NCBI GenBank assembly: GCA_963665075.1
Contig: OY762063.1
Span: forward strand, 502,844-566,843
DNA length: 64,000 nucleotides
Source: Dehalococcoidia bacterium
GTDB lineage: Bacteria; Chloroflexota; Dehalococcoidia; Lucifugimonadales; GCA-2712585
Reading direction: 5' to 3'
Shown here piece by piece: positions 33,231 to 40,209 of the stretch; the first letter of the stretch is position 1, and the number at the start of each line of letters is the position of its first letter. The notes beneath the pieces were generated by a model. That model was not told the DNA's origin and made no database searches. It saw only the letters and a list, made by a program, of their open reading frames with translations. A program made the translations under genes and the position numbers.

Positions 33231-33719
33231 TTACATCTCTCCCTCTACCCCCTCATCCACCCCATACGCCGCCGCTATCTCTCGCATCCGCGTCAGGCTC
33301 GCCGAAGCGTATTCCGTCGCCTCATACCTCTGTATCTGCTGCTCTTTCAGCCCCAGCCGTTCCGCCAATTCCCTCTGGCTCAGCCCGTTCGCGATGCGCG
33401 CCTGTATCAGCAGCCTGGGAATGTCCCCCAGCCCCTTGAGCGCACCCAGGTCGAACCCGCCGGCCTTCACCGCCTCATACTCCTTCAGTTCCCCCTCCAG
33501 GTCCGCCAATTGGCTGTTGATAGCATCTTGCTGTGCCTTCGCGATAAGCGGATGCACCGCCATATACTCAGCCCTGCTCTCCCTCACGACCCCCACGCCG
33601 GCGCGTATTCCAGCGTTCCCGCCATCCCCCATTTCACGCTCCCTCGCTTCCCCAAGCGCCCTCCTCAACCGCCCTGCCTGCGCCCTGGTAATCCTGTATT
33701 GCCTTTCGTTCTTGATCAT
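33231..33719 (-). CDS. XRE-family HTH protein, HigA-like putative antitoxin
   Basis: 162 aa. It has an N-terminal helix (IKNERQYRITRAQAGRLRRAL) and a C-terminal HTH (RIANGLSQRELAERLGLKEQQIQRYE). Its start overlaps the upstream gene's stop (ATGA). Confidence 0.75.
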   Translation of the reverse strand: MIKNERQYRITRAQAGRLRRALGEAREREMGDGGNAGIRAGVGVVRESRAEYMAVHPLIAKAQQDAINSQLADLEGELKEYEAVKAGGFDLGALKGLGDIPRLLIQARIANGLSQRELAERLGLKEQQIQRYEATEYASASLTRMREIAAAYGVDEGVEGEM

Positions 33720-34156
33720 TCGAATTCCCCCAAGTCTATAGCGATTATGCCCTTCTGCTCCCCTGTGTCTTTGTCCATCTGAAAGAATTCCAGGAAGTAG
33801 GACCCGTCGTCATCTGCGATGTAACCCGCCGGAAACATTTCCCCCAGGTATTTGGCCTTCTGCGCAGCCCTCCCATTTTCGAAGGTGAGCAGCACGGGAT
33901 CTAGTTTGTCCGGATCAACTCCTTCTACTTCCCAACAGGCGTCGAAGTCCCCCGGCATCCCTTTGCTGGTGACAAAGCTCCCATCCACGTAAACTGTCCT
34001 GCATCCCGCATTTTTCAAGTTGACGATTGCCGCTTTCAACCCCGCCAACAGCAGTTTCCTCCATACGTTTCCGCCGAACCTGTGTACAAACTCGTCCCAC
34101 GAGGCCTTGTGAATACCCGGTGGCAGGAGTTTTCCCTCATCAAATTGAGGTATCAC
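33716..34156 (-). CDS. Minimal nucleotidyltransferase-like protein (DUF6932-like), putative toxin partner
   Basis: 146 aa. It has a Pol-beta-type NTase-like signature (VYVDGSFVTSKGMPGDFDACW, i.e. GS...DxD) and is translationally coupled to the HTH gene. Confidence 0.6.
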   Translation of the reverse strand: MIPQFDEGKLLPPGIHKASWDEFVHRFGGNVWRKLLLAGLKAAIVNLKNAGCRTVYVDGSFVTSKGMPGDFDACWEVEGVDPDKLDPVLLTFENGRAAQKAKYLGEMFPAGYIADDDGSYFLEFFQMDKDTGEQKGIIAIDLGEFE

Positions 34157-34731: not shown

Positions 34732-35886
34732 CTACACTGCGTACCGACGCAGTAGGCTGCGAGCGATGATTAGCTTCTGTATCTCGTTGGTGCCTTCCCC
34801 GATAATCATAAGCGGCGCGTCCCGGTAGTAACGCTCCAACGGCAGGTCCTTGATATACCCGTATCCCCCGTGGATCCGCATGGCGTCCAGCGTCACCTGG
34901 CCGCAGACTTCGCTGGCGAACAGCTTGGCCATCCCCGCCTCCTCGTCGCACCGCTCGCCCCTGTCCTTCCTGGCCGCCGCGTCGTAGGTCAACAGCCGCG
35001 CGGCGCGAATCTTCGTCGCCATCTCCGCCAGCATCGTCTGTATCGCCTGGTGTTGCGCGATGGGCTTTCCGAAGGTCTCCCGACGCTGAGCGTACCGGAT
35101 AGCCTCCTCGAAGGCCGCTGTCGCAACCCCCACCGCCCGCGCCGCTATGTTTATCCGACCCGCCTCCAACGCCTCCATGACCTGACGAAACCCCCGTCCC
35201 TCCTCCATCCCCACCAGATTCCCCACCGGAGCTAGGCAGTTATCGAATATCAACTCGCACGTGTCCACGCCCCGATACCCCAGCTTCTCCATGTCCGGCC
35301 CCACGCCGAACCCCGGCCCTTTCTCCACCACCAGCGCACTTATCCCTCGATGCGCGGGCCGTGCGTCAATGTCCGTCTTGACCATCACCAGCGCGGCGTG
35401 ACAATTCCGCCCGTTGGTGATGAATAGCTTCCGTCCGTTGACCACATACTCGTCCCCATCCCGCACGGCAACGGTCTGAATAGCCGCCACGTCGCTCCCG
35501 GCCTCAGGCTCCGTCATCGCCAGCGCCCCCCGAATTTCCCCCGACGCCATGCGAGGAAGCCACCGACGCTTCTGCTCCTCCGTCCCGAAGTGCGACACCA
35601 CGTACGCCATGACGGAGTGAGTCCCCAACACGCCGGTTATGCTCATCCACCCCTTCGCCAACTCCTCGAATATCATCGCGAAGGTGGCGTGGTCCAGCCC
35701 CAACCCGCCGTACTCCTCCGGCACGGCAATCCCGAACAGCCCCAACTCCGCCATCTTCTCTACAAGCTCATACGGGTACGAGTCATCCCTATCGTGACGC
35801 GATGCGACGGGCACCACCTCCCGACGCACGAACTCCCGCACGACTGCCAAAATCTGGTTTCTCGTAGCTTGCGACCGTTCTTCCAT
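34732..35886 (-). CDS. Acyl-CoA dehydrogenase
   Basis: It shows ACAD hallmarks: GALAMTEPEAGSD, a C-terminal QIHGGYGY-like segment (RIHGGYGYIKDLPLERYYRDA) and IGEGTNEIQ. ATG 35886 is preferred; the ORF track start is 35925. Confidence 0.9.
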   Translation of the reverse strand: MEERSQATRNQILAVVREFVRREVVPVASRHDRDDSYPYELVEKMAELGLFGIAVPEEYGGLGLDHATFAMIFEELAKGWMSITGVLGTHSVMAYVVSHFGTEEQKRRWLPRMASGEIRGALAMTEPEAGSDVAAIQTVAVRDGDEYVVNGRKLFITNGRNCHAALVMVKTDIDARPAHRGISALVVEKGPGFGVGPDMEKLGYRGVDTCELIFDNCLAPVGNLVGMEEGRGFRQVMEALEAGRINIAARAVGVATAAFEEAIRYAQRRETFGKPIAQHQAIQTMLAEMATKIRAARLLTYDAAARKDRGERCDEEAGMAKLFASEVCGQVTLDAMRIHGGYGYIKDLPLERYYRDAPLMIIGEGTNEIQKLIIARSLLRRYAV

Positions 35887-35981
35887 CCCGCATCCCCCCT
35901 GCATAGACGTTGCCGCCGACGTCAATCGGCCCGCCCACTATATCACAGCGCCGCCAAATGCTTGAGACCATTGAACGACCG

Positions 35982-36385
35982 TCATTCCGACAAAAGCGGG
36001 AATCAATCTTCCTCCTTGAGGAGACCTTTGCATAACCCTTGCTCCCGCGCAAGCGGGAGCCTATCCCCTCCGCTCACCCTAAGCCTGTCCTGAGTCGAAG
36101 GGTCGAGCGCCCTCAAACCAATCACCAACCGCCATTCCCGCCTACCCCTCTCGTCATTCCGACACAAGCCGGAATCCAGTCGCCTCCCTCACACCATCGC
36201 CGATTCGTAGGGGCGGGTTTGAAACCCGCCTTTTCCGCTCACCCTAAGCCTGTCCTGAGCTTGTCGAAGGGTCGAGCGGGCCACGTAAACCTCTTCCCCC
36301 TTGACGGGGGAAGATTGAGATGGGGGTGATTCGTAGAGGGGAAAGGTTAGAGCCTGCCCCGTACTTGATACGGGGATGAGGGTGA
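35982..36385 (+). repeat. Intergenic mosaic of palindromic repeats (families A, H, B, A, E, B, C and a CCCCGTACTTGATACGGGG hairpin)
   Basis: Read directly. It includes GTCATTCCGACAAAAGCGGGAATC, GGAGACCTTTGCATAAC, CGCTCACCCTAAGCCTGTCCTGAG.TCGAAGGGTCGAGCG, GTAGGGGCGGGTTTGAAACCCGCC and CTTCCCCCTTGACGGGGGAAGATTGAGATGGGGGTGA. Confidence 0.85.
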
Positions 36386-36564
36386 TCCGGGTGGGGTGGA
36401 TGATGCATTCGACATTTACTAAATAGGTCTCCTGATGTGGAGGGTTTGGATAGGGATGTCTCTCCCCATCGTTGCCAAATCCCACCCTTTGAGAGTGATG
36501 CAACGGTCTCCGTACTTCGGGGTATCTTGTGGATGTTAATACGAGGACAAAAGGACGCCGCCCA

Positions 36565-36876
36565 TCAACGCCCCAGGATAATCTCATGCCGGCTGATCCT
36601 CATCACCTTGCCGCCACCAATGACCCTGCTAGACGCCTCCGCCTCCTCAACCGACGACACCACCTCGACGCCATTCTCCCTGAACACCCGCTCCCACTCC
36701 CCCGCTTCCTCCAACGCTCGAAGCTGCACCCCGACTGCCTCGTCCAAATTCTCGAACGCTTCCTCAATGGAATCCCCCGACGCAACGGTCCCCAACTCAA
36801 AGCAAGCCGCCACAAACCCGTCCCCATCCCTCTCCCCCACGTTCGTCAAGACGAAATACCCAACCCGCTCCGTCAT
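36565..36876 (-). CDS. HicB-like (UPF0150) antitoxin-fold protein, with no adjacent HicA
   Basis: 103 aa. The segment GFVAACFELGTVASGDSIEEAFENLDEAVGVQLRALEEAGE matches the HicB N-terminal domain pattern. It is the last gene of a same-strand trio with 36954-39147. Confidence 0.6.
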   Translation of the reverse strand: MTERVGYFVLTNVGERDGDGFVAACFELGTVASGDSIEEAFENLDEAVGVQLRALEEAGEWERVFRENGVEVVSSVEEAEASSRVIGGGKVMRISRHEIILGR

Positions 36877-36953
36877 CCTTTGCCGACTCTAGCCACCTGA
36901 TTGTAATCCCAAATGAAAGGAACGACGCCGCATACCGCCCGACGCCAACCCCC

Positions 36954-37913
36954 TCATCCTGTCTTCAACCACACCTTTGCGGGATCCTCACCGCAGTGTT
37001 CCAACAAGCCTATACATGAAGGAACCGATCCCACTGACCCTATCCATGTGTCAATATACAAGCCATTTGACAACGTTTTATGTTCGTAAAAAAGGGTGCC
37101 GTTCCGGCCTTCGGGTTTCACATTTACCAGATAATAATCATCTTTAAACCTTGAATGAACGGGACACACTTCCACCGTCAACTTACCTATACGAATCAGG
37201 TATTCCGCAACCTCCATAGCAAGCCGATTCCAAAACTTAACTCCCCGCTCCTCTCCATTGTCAAACAGTATAATGGGAGGTGGCTTGGTCTTCTTAATTG
37301 GCTCAAAGTCCACCAGACTCGTCCATCCTTCTCTAGGTTTACCGACGGGCGGAGTGGTTGTGGGAGGCTCAGGACCCTGAGAATGTGGTGGAGAAACTTC
37401 AACAATTGGCTTTGTGACAGTCTTAGGACTTCCAGTAGCCATATTCGCGCGCCAAAGCAACAGAAACTGTAAGGACAGTTCGGGCGTAGGATTTTGCAAA
37501 ACGGAGGCTTTCAGCATCGAGCGTTCGCTGAGAGGTTTCTGGTCGAAAACGCTATAGATTTCCCAACGATTGCCGTCCGTTAGACCGGCAAACGGAACGC
37601 CATCAATGTTGGCGTAGTTGAGCATCTGCATTCGTTCGTTCTCGGAGAGTGCAGAGTCAAGACTCTTCGCCTCCAGAACAACGATCGGTTTGCCGTCGGA
37701 TCCTAAGAGTGCGTAGTCCGCTTTCTTACCACCCACTACATACTCCAGCGTCACTACATTTGGGTCAGCCGTATCCCACCCCAACGCGCAAAGTAGTGGA
37801 TCAATCAGCGAAACACGGGTGCGGTATTCGTTAGAGGAAAGAACTTCCCGATGGGAAGCAATCCGCTCCTTCAGAGTCTCAATAACCCCCACCAATTCAT
37901 CCAACAACATCAC
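36954..37913 (-). CDS. HsdR_N-type PD-(D/E)xK nuclease-domain protein (paralogue 2) with a Pro-rich linker and an unknown C-terminal domain
   Basis: 319 aa. It begins with SNEYRTRVSLIDPLLCALGWD, followed by KADYALL...KPIVVLEAKS (D...ExK). The gene is AT-rich. Confidence 0.7.
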   Translation of the reverse strand: MMLLDELVGVIETLKERIASHREVLSSNEYRTRVSLIDPLLCALGWDTADPNVVTLEYVVGGKKADYALLGSDGKPIVVLEAKSLDSALSENERMQMLNYANIDGVPFAGLTDGNRWEIYSVFDQKPLSERSMLKASVLQNPTPELSLQFLLLWRANMATGSPKTVTKPIVEVSPPHSQGPEPPTTTPPVGKPREGWTSLVDFEPIKKTKPPPIILFDNGEERGVKFWNRLAMEVAEYLIRIGKLTVEVCPVHSRFKDDYYLVNVKPEGRNGTLFYEHKTLSNGLYIDTWIGSVGSVPSCIGLLEHCGEDPAKVWLKTG

Positions 37914-37977
37914 TAACCCCCATGATCAAATCCGTCATCATCACTTCGTATACAACTACTGTGGATAATACAACTTA

Positions 37978-39147
37978 TCAATTTTTAGGATAAGCATCGT
38001 AAGCTTTTTGGATAAGTTCGCCAATGGTTTTGCGCCGTTCTTTGTCTACCAAATCAGACTCTTTAACCCTGATGCGATAGCGTCTCCATTGCTTATCGTA
38101 AGGGAGAAGGTCGAGATTGCTCCCTTCTAACCAAGAGGAAAAATCGTCATCCTGCACAATTAGGAACCCAGCGATTAGATGTGCTTTGCGAGGCTGGAAT
38201 ATTACAAAGTTTTGTGCATTTCTGCCAGGCACAGCAAGGCCAATATAGTGCTTATTGTACTTCGGTCCTATTCCCGGAAATACCTCTTGAACCATCTCAA
38301 CCAAGCTATCAACCAGAGAAAGACTTGCAACCGATGCCTTGCGTTCCCAAAATGTCCGATTGAAGACCACACCCTCATGCACTGAATCTGTTTCATGTGC
38401 ATCATCTATTTTAGTCACTTCCGTTTGTTCCACACTGACAGCAAGGTTGGCAACAAAAAAGTCCTTCAACGCCTCTCTCACGTGTTTGGTAAAACGCACC
38501 ACGGTATCTGGCGTTATAGACCCTTCGTAAATCTTGCTCATTAACCACTCAACAAAATCCTTCTGTGGGTTCTTCAATTCCGCAGCCAGTACCTTGTGAA
38601 TTGCCGTGCGGTAGTAAAGTTCTTCACTGATTCTAGAAACATTTTCAGCATTGAAATTGCCCTTGGAAAAGGCCATCAAAGTATCCAAGTCCCCAGACGA
38701 GAGGTTTGTTATGTCAACTACAAAGAAGGGCTTGGTATCCATCGCATTCTTCTTCACGACGTCGCCATAGAACCGATACTCGGCCCCGTTCGTTAGTACG
38801 CCTACTTTAGCGGATGTAGCCCCGAAGTATCTGTAGAGTTGCGACAGGTGCTCACCCTCGTTCAAACGGACTTTCAGGCTCTTGGATTCAACCAAAATGA
38901 GTGGCTCGCCGTCTGTCAGAAGAGCATAGTCAACCTTATCGTTTGACTTGACGCCAGGAACGCCCGCCTTGTATTCAACTGTCACCAGTGCTGGATCCGC
39001 TGTGTCCCATCCCAAGACAGCCAAGAGTGGATCGATCAATGAGGCGCGAGTTTGCGACTCACTGGCCTCAAGGGTAGAGCCATGATCCCTAATCCGTGAT
39101 TTCAAAGACTCAATGACAGACGTTAGGTTGTCCAACACTCTAGCCAA
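37978..39147 (-). CDS. HsdR_N-type PD-(D/E)xK nuclease-domain protein (paralogue 1) with a distinct C-terminal extension
   Basis: 389 aa. It begins with SESQTRASLIDPLLAVLGWD, followed by KVDYALL...EPLILVESKS (D...ExK). The first ~130 aa are clearly paralogous to 36954-37913. The gene is AT-rich. Confidence 0.7.
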   Translation of the reverse strand: MARVLDNLTSVIESLKSRIRDHGSTLEASESQTRASLIDPLLAVLGWDTADPALVTVEYKAGVPGVKSNDKVDYALLTDGEPLILVESKSLKVRLNEGEHLSQLYRYFGATSAKVGVLTNGAEYRFYGDVVKKNAMDTKPFFVVDITNLSSGDLDTLMAFSKGNFNAENVSRISEELYYRTAIHKVLAAELKNPQKDFVEWLMSKIYEGSITPDTVVRFTKHVREALKDFFVANLAVSVEQTEVTKIDDAHETDSVHEGVVFNRTFWERKASVASLSLVDSLVEMVQEVFPGIGPKYNKHYIGLAVPGRNAQNFVIFQPRKAHLIAGFLIVQDDDFSSWLEGSNLDLLPYDKQWRRYRIRVKESDLVDKERRKTIGELIQKAYDAYPKN

Positions 39148-39174
39148 CTCCTCTCATTTAAATCCACTCCGACT

Positions 39175-40209
39175 CTACCCTCCCACCCACTCAAACACCT
39201 GCACCCGCGCCCGCGCCGTGTCCACCACGAACACCCGCCCCGCAGCGTCAACCTTCACCGTCGTCGGCGCCCAGAACAGCTTCTCCACCATCGCCGACTC
39301 CTGACGCAACCGATCCCCCGGCGGATACTCCGGCTCAGGCTCCATGTTCGCCTTCTCCCGCTCCGCCAACTCGTCCAAATTCGTCGTGAAATACTCGTGC
39401 GCCCACTTGGAAAGCCCCGACTCCCCCCTCAGACTGGCCAGCCGCTCCCCCTCCTGCGTCAAAACCTGCACCCGCTCATTCCCCCAATCCGCCACGTACA
39501 TCACCCCGTCGCTGTCCACCGCCAACCCCGACGGACGATTGAACGCCCCATCCTCAGCGTCGGACCCACCCCACGCCCTCAAAAACTCCCCCGACGCCGA
39601 AAACTTCTGAATCCTATCGTTCCGCCAGTCCGCCACGTACACGTTGCCGTCGGCGTCCGAAGCCAACCCCCACGGCATATTGAACTCCCCATCCCCGTCG
39701 CCCGCGCTCCCCCACTGCGACACAAACTCCCCCTCCGCCGTATACCTCTGCACCCGATGATTCAGGCTGTCCGACACCAGCAGAACCCCATCGGAATCAA
39801 ACATGATCCCCGAAGGACGGTCGAACTCCCCCTCTCCGCTCCCCCGCTTCCCCCACTTCCCCAAATACTCCCCGTCCTTGTCCCAGACCGAAATCCGATT
39901 CAGCGCCTCGTCCGACACGTACGCTCGCCCATCGGAATCCAACGCAATCGACGAAGGCCACATTATCTGCCCGTCCTCCGTCCCGCCGTAGCTGAACTCC
40001 CCCAGGTACTCCTCGTCCACCGTGCACTTCGTCACTCGCTTCGACACGTAATCGTCGAACGCGTCCGTCCCGCCCCGGCTTGGCACGTACATAATCCCGT
40101 CGCTGTCGAAGGCCAGGTCCACCGGATTGGCGAACCCCCGACCTCCTTGCAGCGACATAAACCCAACGGTATGGCTGTATTGCAGCTTGGCTGCCGTCTT
40201 CGTAATCAT
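39175..40209 (-). CDS. NHL-repeat six-bladed beta-propeller protein (cassette copy 2)
   Basis: 344 aa. It has repeated G.G.GEF..P.G...D.DG..YV(A/S)D..N.R(I/V)Q blades. Confidence 0.85.
   Translation of the reverse strand: MITKTAAKLQYSHTVGFMSLQGGRGFANPVDLAFDSDGIMYVPSRGGTDAFDDYVSKRVTKCTVDEEYLGEFSYGGTEDGQIMWPSSIALDSDGRAYVSDEALNRISVWDKDGEYLGKWGKRGSGEGEFDRPSGIMFDSDGVLLVSDSLNHRVQRYTAEGEFVSQWGSAGDGDGEFNMPWGLASDADGNVYVADWRNDRIQKFSASGEFLRAWGGSDAEDGAFNRPSGLAVDSDGVMYVADWGNERVQVLTQEGERLASLRGESGLSKWAHEYFTTNLDELAEREKANMEPEPEYPPGDRLRQESAMVEKLFWAPTTVKVDAAGRVFVVDTARARVQVFEWVGG

Follow-up and report, generated by a model that had tools for sequence, protein, structure and literature searches.

A tandem of solitary HsdR-N-type nuclease genes, candidate modification-dependent restriction enzymes, in a variable chromosomal slot of a sponge symbiont beside an orphan HicB-family gene

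Proteins that carry the N-terminal nuclease domain of the restriction subunit HsdR on their own are common in genome annotations, usually under the mistaken label of a type I restriction subunit, and to our knowledge none has been characterized. What such proteins might do without a motor, methylase or specificity subunit is the question raised by a locus on the chromosome of a sponge symbiont, which we analysed within a window of 64,000 nucleotides (the whole stretch of DNA under study, to which positions refer unless stated otherwise). Two adjacent minus-strand genes, A (37978–39147, 389 aa) and B (36954–37913, 319 aa), are followed on the same strand by a small gene, C (36565–36876, 103 aa), starting 78 bp past B. 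The original prediction proposed that the three could form one stand-alone, nuclease-based defence or toxin-antitoxin (TA)-like module. In the reading that we favour, with slightly better than even confidence, A and B are restriction-like nucleases that stand alone in a variable defence slot and probably depend on DNA modification, and C is an orphan HicB antitoxin beside them.

Both nuclease genes have the open reading frames and the common N-terminal module ascribed to them at the outset. The modules share 60 of 139 residues (43%, E 2e-29) and the proteins show no likeness beyond, a resemblance at the level of the family and not of a recent duplication. The predicted type I R-subunit nuclease pattern is present, quoted motifs included, and Pfam HSDR_N (PF04313; curated cut-off 25.1 bits) is matched above its cut-off by A (50.6 bits) and by B (28.6 bits), with a match to HSDR_N_2 in A as well (29.8 bits). 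Invariant residues across 40 aligned B-family members are E29, D66, E81-A-K83 and Q96; the D/E-x-K of B aligns with that of the HsdR structure 3h1t, and the residues of A matching the triad are D73, E87 and K89. Judged from these alignments, the catalytic D...ExK triad is intact and family-invariant in both proteins. The nuclease domain of B (residues 1–160; 37434–37913, minus strand) was delimited by an alignment of relatives together with the alignment to 3h1t, and its best structural matches are the nuclease domains of BpuSI, HsdR 3h1t and DrdV. In the AF2 model of B (pLDDT 88), the Pro-rich linker that had been noted earlier (residues 168–189) is modelled as disordered, between the head and an unnamed C-terminal domain; in A, the head is followed by a helical middle part, the two spanning residues 1–235, and by a further tail. 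Full-length relatives of B number more than 1,800.

HsdR itself (EcoR124I; Vibrio vulnificus, 3h1t) has the same N-terminal PD-(D/E)xK HSDR_N domain with the D...E-x-K aligned, but is ~800–1,000 aa long and also contains an SF2 translocase motor and a C-terminal HsdM-binding part, neither of which A or B has. As originally claimed, the nucleases stand apart from type I machinery: Pfam and NCBIfam scans found no helicase family in A or B, both of which are too short for one, and no N6_Mtase or Methylase_S match lies within the 64-kb window, so that neither hsdM nor hsdS is near. Matches to these two families elsewhere in the genome come no closer than ~98 kb to the locus, and the genome's type I locus (334.9–341 kb) is ~200 kb from A, B and C (539.8–542 kb on the same scale). 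A PADLOC search, suggested with the original prediction, returned no full-length system-protein match for A or B in PADLOC-DB 2.0; since PADLOC (REase_MTase_IIG, REase_I, PDC-M54B and CARF_PDDEXK) and NCBIfam match the nuclease domain only, no known system applies. Type IIG enzymes provide the best PADLOC match of A (REase_MTase_IIG, residues 11–134) and the best structural matches of the B head (BpuSI, 3s1s; DrdV, 7lvv), but methyltransferase and target-recognition domains are missing from A and B. Solitary HSDR_N proteins of ~365 aa (COG2810/COG4748), annotated as 'predicted type IV restriction endonuclease', 'type I restriction endonuclease' or 'prophage Lp2 protein 6', are 37–42% identical to residues 1–235 of A, and A-type homologues at JGI are likewise named 'predicted type IV restriction endonuclease'. 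Relative to these proteins, A has the usual tail swapped for a DUF5655-like one, whereas B, whose family hhalign links to their profile with 99% probability, is without the helical middle region and has a tail weakly alike to theirs in sequence (77% probability, 52 columns); in an archaeal cluster of the ~365-aa proteins, the tail has the B-tail fold (TM 0.67). Enrichment of the solitary restriction endonuclease COG2810 in sponge symbionts has been reported (PMC5649159).

The C-termini of A and B are completely different, as had been stated from the start, and hhalign detected no relationship between the two tails (probability 0.2%). The tail of A (residues 255–389; 37981–38385, minus strand) matches DUF5655 (PF18899) at E 2.8e-4 with 21.3 bits, below the curated cut-off of 24, and we therefore term it DUF5655-like rather than a member. 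A 294-aa family with a different nuclease-like head has a tail that shares 54% identity with the A tail; of 17 family members, 12 match DUF5655 weakly and no other profile, and the family's own profile found no match among PDB sequences. Atlas feature neighbours of the A tail carry DUF5655, and DUF5655-like tails are also joined to GmrSD_C. The tail of B (residues 192–319; 36957–37340, minus strand) has no Pfam model, and its profile likewise found no match among PDB sequences. A wide search with VIA-align detected resemblance to the DNA-binding domains SeqA-C (3sk7, 3fmt) and SLED of Scml2 (2mem), a likeness at the fold level only (6–12% identity); the B tail has no Pfam match to SeqA, and Foldseek, which misses SeqA and SLED, returned nothing at E < 0.9 against the PDB and the viral BFVD library. 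On the strength of its modelled fold, the B tail is predicted to be a nucleic-acid reader. At the structure level this fold is also joined to GmrSD, DUF4268 and T5orf172 nucleases, and at the sequence level the domain is found in fusions with SF2 helicase domains and with Ser/Thr kinase domains as well and in arrays of 2–4 tandem copies. The B tail has no sequence-level match to DUF4268, which is a predicted DNA binder (PMC5714182). The C-termini of A and B are exchangeable modules. The B-tail domain, with about 1,900 sequence clusters, is an abundant one that has no family model at all; its ligand, once known, would supply a function for about 1,900 protein clusters and shed light on a portion of the restriction repertoire that, according to reports, is characteristic of sponge symbionts.

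Exchange is also evident at the chromosomal position itself. A and B lie between two conserved flanks, an NHL-repeat gene upstream (39175–40209, minus strand; Pfam NHL), 87% identical in four relatives (L004, L008, L017 and L118), and an acyl-CoA dehydrogenase gene downstream (34732–35925, minus strand; Pfam), 86–87% identical in four syntenic relatives. Flanking genes are overall 80–92% identical to those of relatives, against 44–61% for the nuclease alleles. The syntenic slots hold B only (L004, L008, L017), a chimera of an A-type head and a B-type tail (L118) or B+B (L009), and the alleles found at this one slot are non-orthologous. Residues 29–243 of A are 56% identical to P0002, the chimeric occupant of the slot in a relative; a recent deletion that joined A to B was rejected as the origin of P0002, its head being 56% identical to A and its tail 44% identical to B. 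The A+B tandem occurs in this genome only, among the loci examined, and A, B and C do not form a conserved unit. Different alleles and different head/tail combinations in one slot fit the expectation for defence genes that are swapped through recombination. The locus shows solitary HsdR_N proteins to be modular, with heads and tails swapped at a single chromosomal slot, and to evolve like defence genes.

Under our favoured reading, A and B would be two independent, self-contained endonucleases with no need for a motor, methylase or specificity subunit, each combining an HsdR-N-type PD-(D/E)xK cutting head with its own C-terminal nucleic-acid-reader domain. Type IV-like action, dependent on a modification or another feature of the DNA, seems most likely: the tail would locate the feature and the head would cut. 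The slot, which lies between conserved housekeeping genes, is hypervariable, with nuclease alleles and head/tail combinations that differ among related strains. GmrSD type IV enzymes follow the same logic (nuclease plus reader, no methylase), and both B-tail-like folds and DUF5655 are appended to GmrSD_C nucleases, although GmrSD is a ParB-like plus HNH nuclease whereas A and B have PD-(D/E)xK heads. A bolder version, which we offer tentatively and regard as rather doubtful, holds that the B tail is a reader, as yet undescribed, for nucleic acid that is modified or otherwise marked, that it turns an HsdR-type head into a one-protein restriction enzyme, that the result is a new type-IV-like family spread across sponge symbionts of four phyla, and that the co-oriented TA modules downstream act as a second layer of defence.

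The assignment of C depends on what its homologues do. Its match to Pfam HicB_lk_antitox (E 0.036) is weak and below cut-off, so we call it a relative of HicB from the context of its homologues; in that form the earlier description of a HicB-like gene 78 bp downstream holds, position included. C homologues occur in 139 of 401 genomes of the class and are usually followed by a HicA_toxin gene, the pairing typical of HicAB type II TA systems, and the genome's own C paralogue (1.184 Mb) has the hicB-hicA arrangement. Among other HicB-like loci, ~25 of 29 have a 79–86-aa gene 1–18 bp downstream, with a HicA_toxin match in 9 of the 10 tested. No HicA profile match was found in the 64-kb window, and a six-frame search downstream of C detected no hicA here or in L004, L008 or L017, the same search recovering it in the positive control L019 (E 7e-31); hicA after C is absent here and in four syntenic relatives. 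C has no recognisable DNA-binding domain and carries a clade-specific tail of ~25 residues. It is most likely the remnant of a hicB-hicA pair after loss of the toxin and not the nucleases' partner, a warning that a small gene beside a nuclease does not always belong to it. Its place after B may reflect the observed tendency of the space downstream of B-family genes to collect TA modules repeatedly.

That same tendency is one argument for an alternative that we consider improbable, in which B (with A) and C form a TA-like or regulated unit, the nuclease being toxic and the HicA-less HicB restraining it or controlling its expression, or, more broadly, in which the B family works with any TA module that lies downstream. 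Various TA types do follow B at the same position, in its orientation and at a short distance (VapBC in 13–15 loci, HicB in 7 and HigBA in 4, with an Asp protease in 5 and nothing in the others), and within 8-kb loci VapB-like and PIN matches occur only there, but this count is biased because the TA profiles themselves derive from genes found in this slot. These genomes are moreover very densely packed with TA modules (at least 4 in the window), so that chance adjacency is not rare, and in about 50 of 80 B loci B is not followed by a TA gene. Retention of C beside a nuclease in five syntenic genomes, with hicA gone in all of them, fits a regulated unit, as does the fact that HicB-family genes joined B-family genes twice independently; yet C homologues pair with hicA and not with nucleases, and three loci (L018, L019 and L044) keep the toxin in the order B-hicB-hicA. 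The B-adjacent HicBs fall into two separate clades of the tree, which rules out B plus HicB as one mobile unit. Composition also sets C apart: its GC content (0.61) is that of the host (window, 0.59) whereas that of B is not, so the AT-richness originally attributed to the trio applies to A (0.47) and B (0.49) only. A complex prediction for B and C scored 0.00, neither support for nor evidence against binding. What survives of the stand-alone module first envisaged is a pair of solitary HsdR_N nucleases with the triad intact and with exchangeable C-termini; the trio as one module is not supported, given the restriction of A+B to this genome and the pairing of C homologues with hicA.

The distribution of B bears on a second alternative, to which we give only a small chance, namely that B is a resident housekeeping nuclease (acting, for example, in DNA repair, recombination or chromosome maintenance) that is inherited vertically at a fixed site and has no part in defence. 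Shared flanking metabolic genes link 48 of 80 B loci, a genome usually has one copy of B, and the SeqA-like tail could point to chromosome biology. The spread within the class is nevertheless patchy (B tail in 59 of 401 genomes and 16 of 223 genera), the family is present in four phyla with heads and tails shuffled, GC of the B gene is below that of its flanks in 56 of 75 loci, and the 44–61% identity of the non-orthologous slot alleles contrasts with ~87% for the flanks.

Least probable of all is that A and B behave as selfish genes for free-standing endonucleases of the homing type, which would spread by cutting empty intergenic target sites and being copied in. This would suit the insertion of single nuclease genes of low GC between conserved housekeeping genes, the use of the same site in many genomes across phyla, and the exact fit of A between the NHL stop codon and the start of B with the 5′ ends of A and B alike, but recent homing would give near-identical copies in close hosts rather than the divergent ones found (46–61% identity), no empty-site allele occurs among five syntenic loci, and the 15-nt direct repeat on both sides of A+B (36883–36897 and 39169–39183) is missing in relatives, including L004, and was treated as chance.

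A promoter and terminator scan gave a number of sites not above that in shuffled sequence, and no RNA run contained DNA of the locus. One sponge metatranscriptome contig is ~85% identical to the head region of B; at that identity it comes from a relative and is no proof that B is transcribed. The spacer between C and the acyl-CoA dehydrogenase gene, where hicA would lie, measures 640 bp here compared to 121–388 bp in relatives and is filled by REP-like repeat units (35980–36400) that belong to direct repeat families D1, D2 and D4 and recur at intervals of about 165–172 bp.

Two adjacent minus-strand genes of 389 aa and 319 aa, A (37978–39147) and B (36954–37913), followed on the same strand by a HicB-like ORF of 103 aa, C (36565–36876), were confirmed as originally described. 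A and B resemble each other at the N-terminus alone, over ~139 residues (E 2e-29, 43% identical), and both exceed the curated cut-off of the Pfam family HSDR_N, which bears out the proposed shared N-terminal nuclease module. The catalytic residues are intact: E29, D66, E81-A-K83 and Q96 of B do not vary when 40 B-family proteins (relatives of B) are aligned, they coincide with the D and E-x-K that form the catalytic site in the HsdR fragment structure 3h1t, and the matching positions in A are D73, E87 and K89. The AF2 model of B (pLDDT 88) has two domains separated by a disordered Pro-rich linker (residues 168–189), and its head has structural matches in the nuclease domains of BpuSI, HsdR and DrdV. 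A 635-nt contig from a sponge metatranscriptome run is ~85% identical to the nuclease-head region of B (window 37509–37832); it is a relative's gene and no proof of transcription of B.

As the original prediction held, neither A nor B contains a helicase domain and no N6_Mtase or Methylase_S gene lies inside the window; all such genes of the genome lie outside it, and the true type I locus sits at a distance of ~200 kb. Residues 1–235 of A belong to a ~365-aa solitary HSDR_N family (labelled at source as “type I restriction endonuclease”, “predicted type IV restriction endonuclease” or “prophage Lp2 protein 6”), and the B family matches the profile of this family at 99% probability, chiefly via the head. 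By kind, A and B come closest to the solitary HSDR_N predicted type IV restriction endonucleases (COG2810/COG4748-type), themselves uncharacterised. The proposal of a defence or toxin–antitoxin (TA)-like module with sensor tails is partly supported: A and B are putative free-standing nucleases whose sensor-like tails are exchangeable, but A, B and C do not form a three-gene module.

The position of these nucleases between the NHL and acyl-CoA dehydrogenase genes is variable in content. Flanking DUF1800, NHL, acyl-CoA dehydrogenase and MaoC genes are common to five related assemblies, being 80–92% identical to those of the window in L004, L008, L017 and L118 and 67–76% in the more distant L009. 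The slot holds a single B-type gene in L004 and L008 (60–61% identity to B) and in L017 (46%), a 404-aa chimera with an A-type head and a B-type tail in L118 (P0002, L118:3892-5106), and a tandem of two B-type genes without C in L009; B–B tandems also occur in locus L040 and genomes G176 and G261. Among the loci examined, A together with B was seen in the window only. Since slot content differs in each relative, the “tandem paralogues” represent one of several states of this hypervariable slot and not a conserved pair. P0002 shares 56% identity with A in its head (215 residues) and 44% with B in its tail, and is direct evidence of head/tail shuffling in this family. The exchange of alleles and domains documented for this single slot is new here.

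A (GC 0.47) and B (0.49) are AT-rich compared to the window (0.59), whereas C (0.61) is not, so that the AT-richness ascribed to the trio holds for the nuclease genes only. B-family genes have a GC of 0.56 versus 0.63 in their flanks (lower than the flanks in 56 of 75 loci), and spread of the B tail within the class is patchy (59/401 genomes, 16/223 genera). The best 80 of 438 B relatives from species-representative genomes are mainly Dehalococcoidia and also include Bryobacterales, Entotheonella, a Rhodothermaceae bin and a SAR202 bin. Low GC, patchy spread and taxonomic range are compatible with exchanged accessory or defence genes. COG2810 (solitary restriction endonuclease) is reported among the functions enriched in sponge symbionts (PMC5649159; see also PMC4453008). 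A 15-nt direct repeat (window 36883–36897 and 39169–39183, 13/15 identical) brackets the low-GC A and B segment; it is absent in L004 and is therefore probably due to chance. Overlapping DUF6932 (146 aa) and XRE-HTH (162 aa) genes at window 33231–34156 are kept in every syntenic relative (four of five) except L009, whose fetched stretch gave no match, at only 62–73% identity versus ~87% for metabolic neighbours; in its fast evolution the pair resembles TA genes.

By hhalign, the A and B tails show no relation, in agreement with the unlike C-terminal domains first proposed. No Pfam family was found in the B tail (residues 192–319) across 37 scanned members; in isolation it has a high-confidence predicted fold (pLDDT 95, pTM 0.89), for which Foldseek returned no match in the PDB or among viral models. 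In the ESM Atlas, this fold (TM 0.66–0.75) occurs on archaeal HSDR_N proteins, on GmrSD_C and DUF4268 proteins and in a T5orf172/SeqA cluster. When 1.84 billion representatives were searched with a profile, 1,912 clusters proved to contain the domain (1,151 of them with E <= 1e-10). It frequently occurs as 2–4 tandem copies per protein, and it is also fused to an SF2 helicase (P0272) or a Ser/Thr protein kinase (P0280, 573 aa). Given this cluster count, the tandem copies, the varied fusions and the lack of a Pfam family, the B tail is a widespread, promiscuous and unnamed module, new here, and its role is most likely nucleic-acid reading. Up to four tandem copies were seen in proteins of ~760–800 aa (set P0241, P0264, P0306, P0272 and P0280, which also includes an 859-aa helicase fusion).

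The A tail (residues 255–389) is DUF5655-like, scoring below the Pfam cut-off. It shares 54% identity with the C-terminal part of a 294-aa family in which another nuclease-like domain forms the head; this tail swap in A is also new. DUF5655 is found together with GmrSD_C as well. Two small co-oriented genes always precede the 294-aa family gene (L119:3277-4885, L120:3280-4885, L121:3322-4885), of 96–111 aa (weak winged-helix match) and then 81–82 aa (no family). The set, which could be a three-gene unit, adjoins IS1-like, SAVED or HsdM genes.

Directly 3′ of B and co-oriented, 80 B-family loci carry an Rv0623-like antitoxin with a PIN toxin (13–15 loci), a HicB-like gene (7; three followed by hicA, four without), HigB/HigA (4), a retropepsin-like protease (5) or no TA gene (~50). 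Shared flanks link 48 of the 80 by loose single linkage, which may exaggerate how far they belong together; even so, different TA modules have gathered at one chromosomal site. In the HicB-like tree, B-adjacent members fall into two distinct clades with good support, both lying within ordinary hicBA members, which rules out B and HicB as a co-travelling unit and indicates that HicB arrived beside B-family genes at least twice. Recurrent TA genes after B hint at a hot spot or a functional preference. They do not show C to be a nuclease partner, because these genomes are very rich in TA genes, members of the slot itself went into the TA profiles and the loci are not independent. Complex prediction for B and C gave no support, which we do not count as evidence against binding.

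C scores under the Pfam HicB cut-off and is 70–81% identical in the four syntenic relatives carrying it. Of 401 genomes in the class, 139 match a profile built from C together with its relatives; this count includes a single match from one unpublished genome, G244, on which nothing else here depends. A 79–86-aa gene on the same strand follows 1–18 bp after the C-like gene in ~25 of the 29 loci fetched, with a HicA_toxin match in 9 of 10 tested, and the genome's own C paralogue at 1.184 Mb has the hicB–hicA layout. A six-frame search 3′ of C found no hicA remnant in the window, L004, L008 or L017 (control L019, E 7e-31). With its homologues paired with hicA and no remnant behind it, C is most likely an orphan HicB. 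The space 3′ of C is occupied by REP-like repeats: two units of ~170 bp each lie at window 35980–36400, in a spacer of 640 bp versus 121–388 bp in relatives, at the position of hicA in complete hicBA loci. A third HicB-like copy in the source genome (G000:C1:917651-917893), with no HicA_toxin match nearby, may be another orphan antitoxin.
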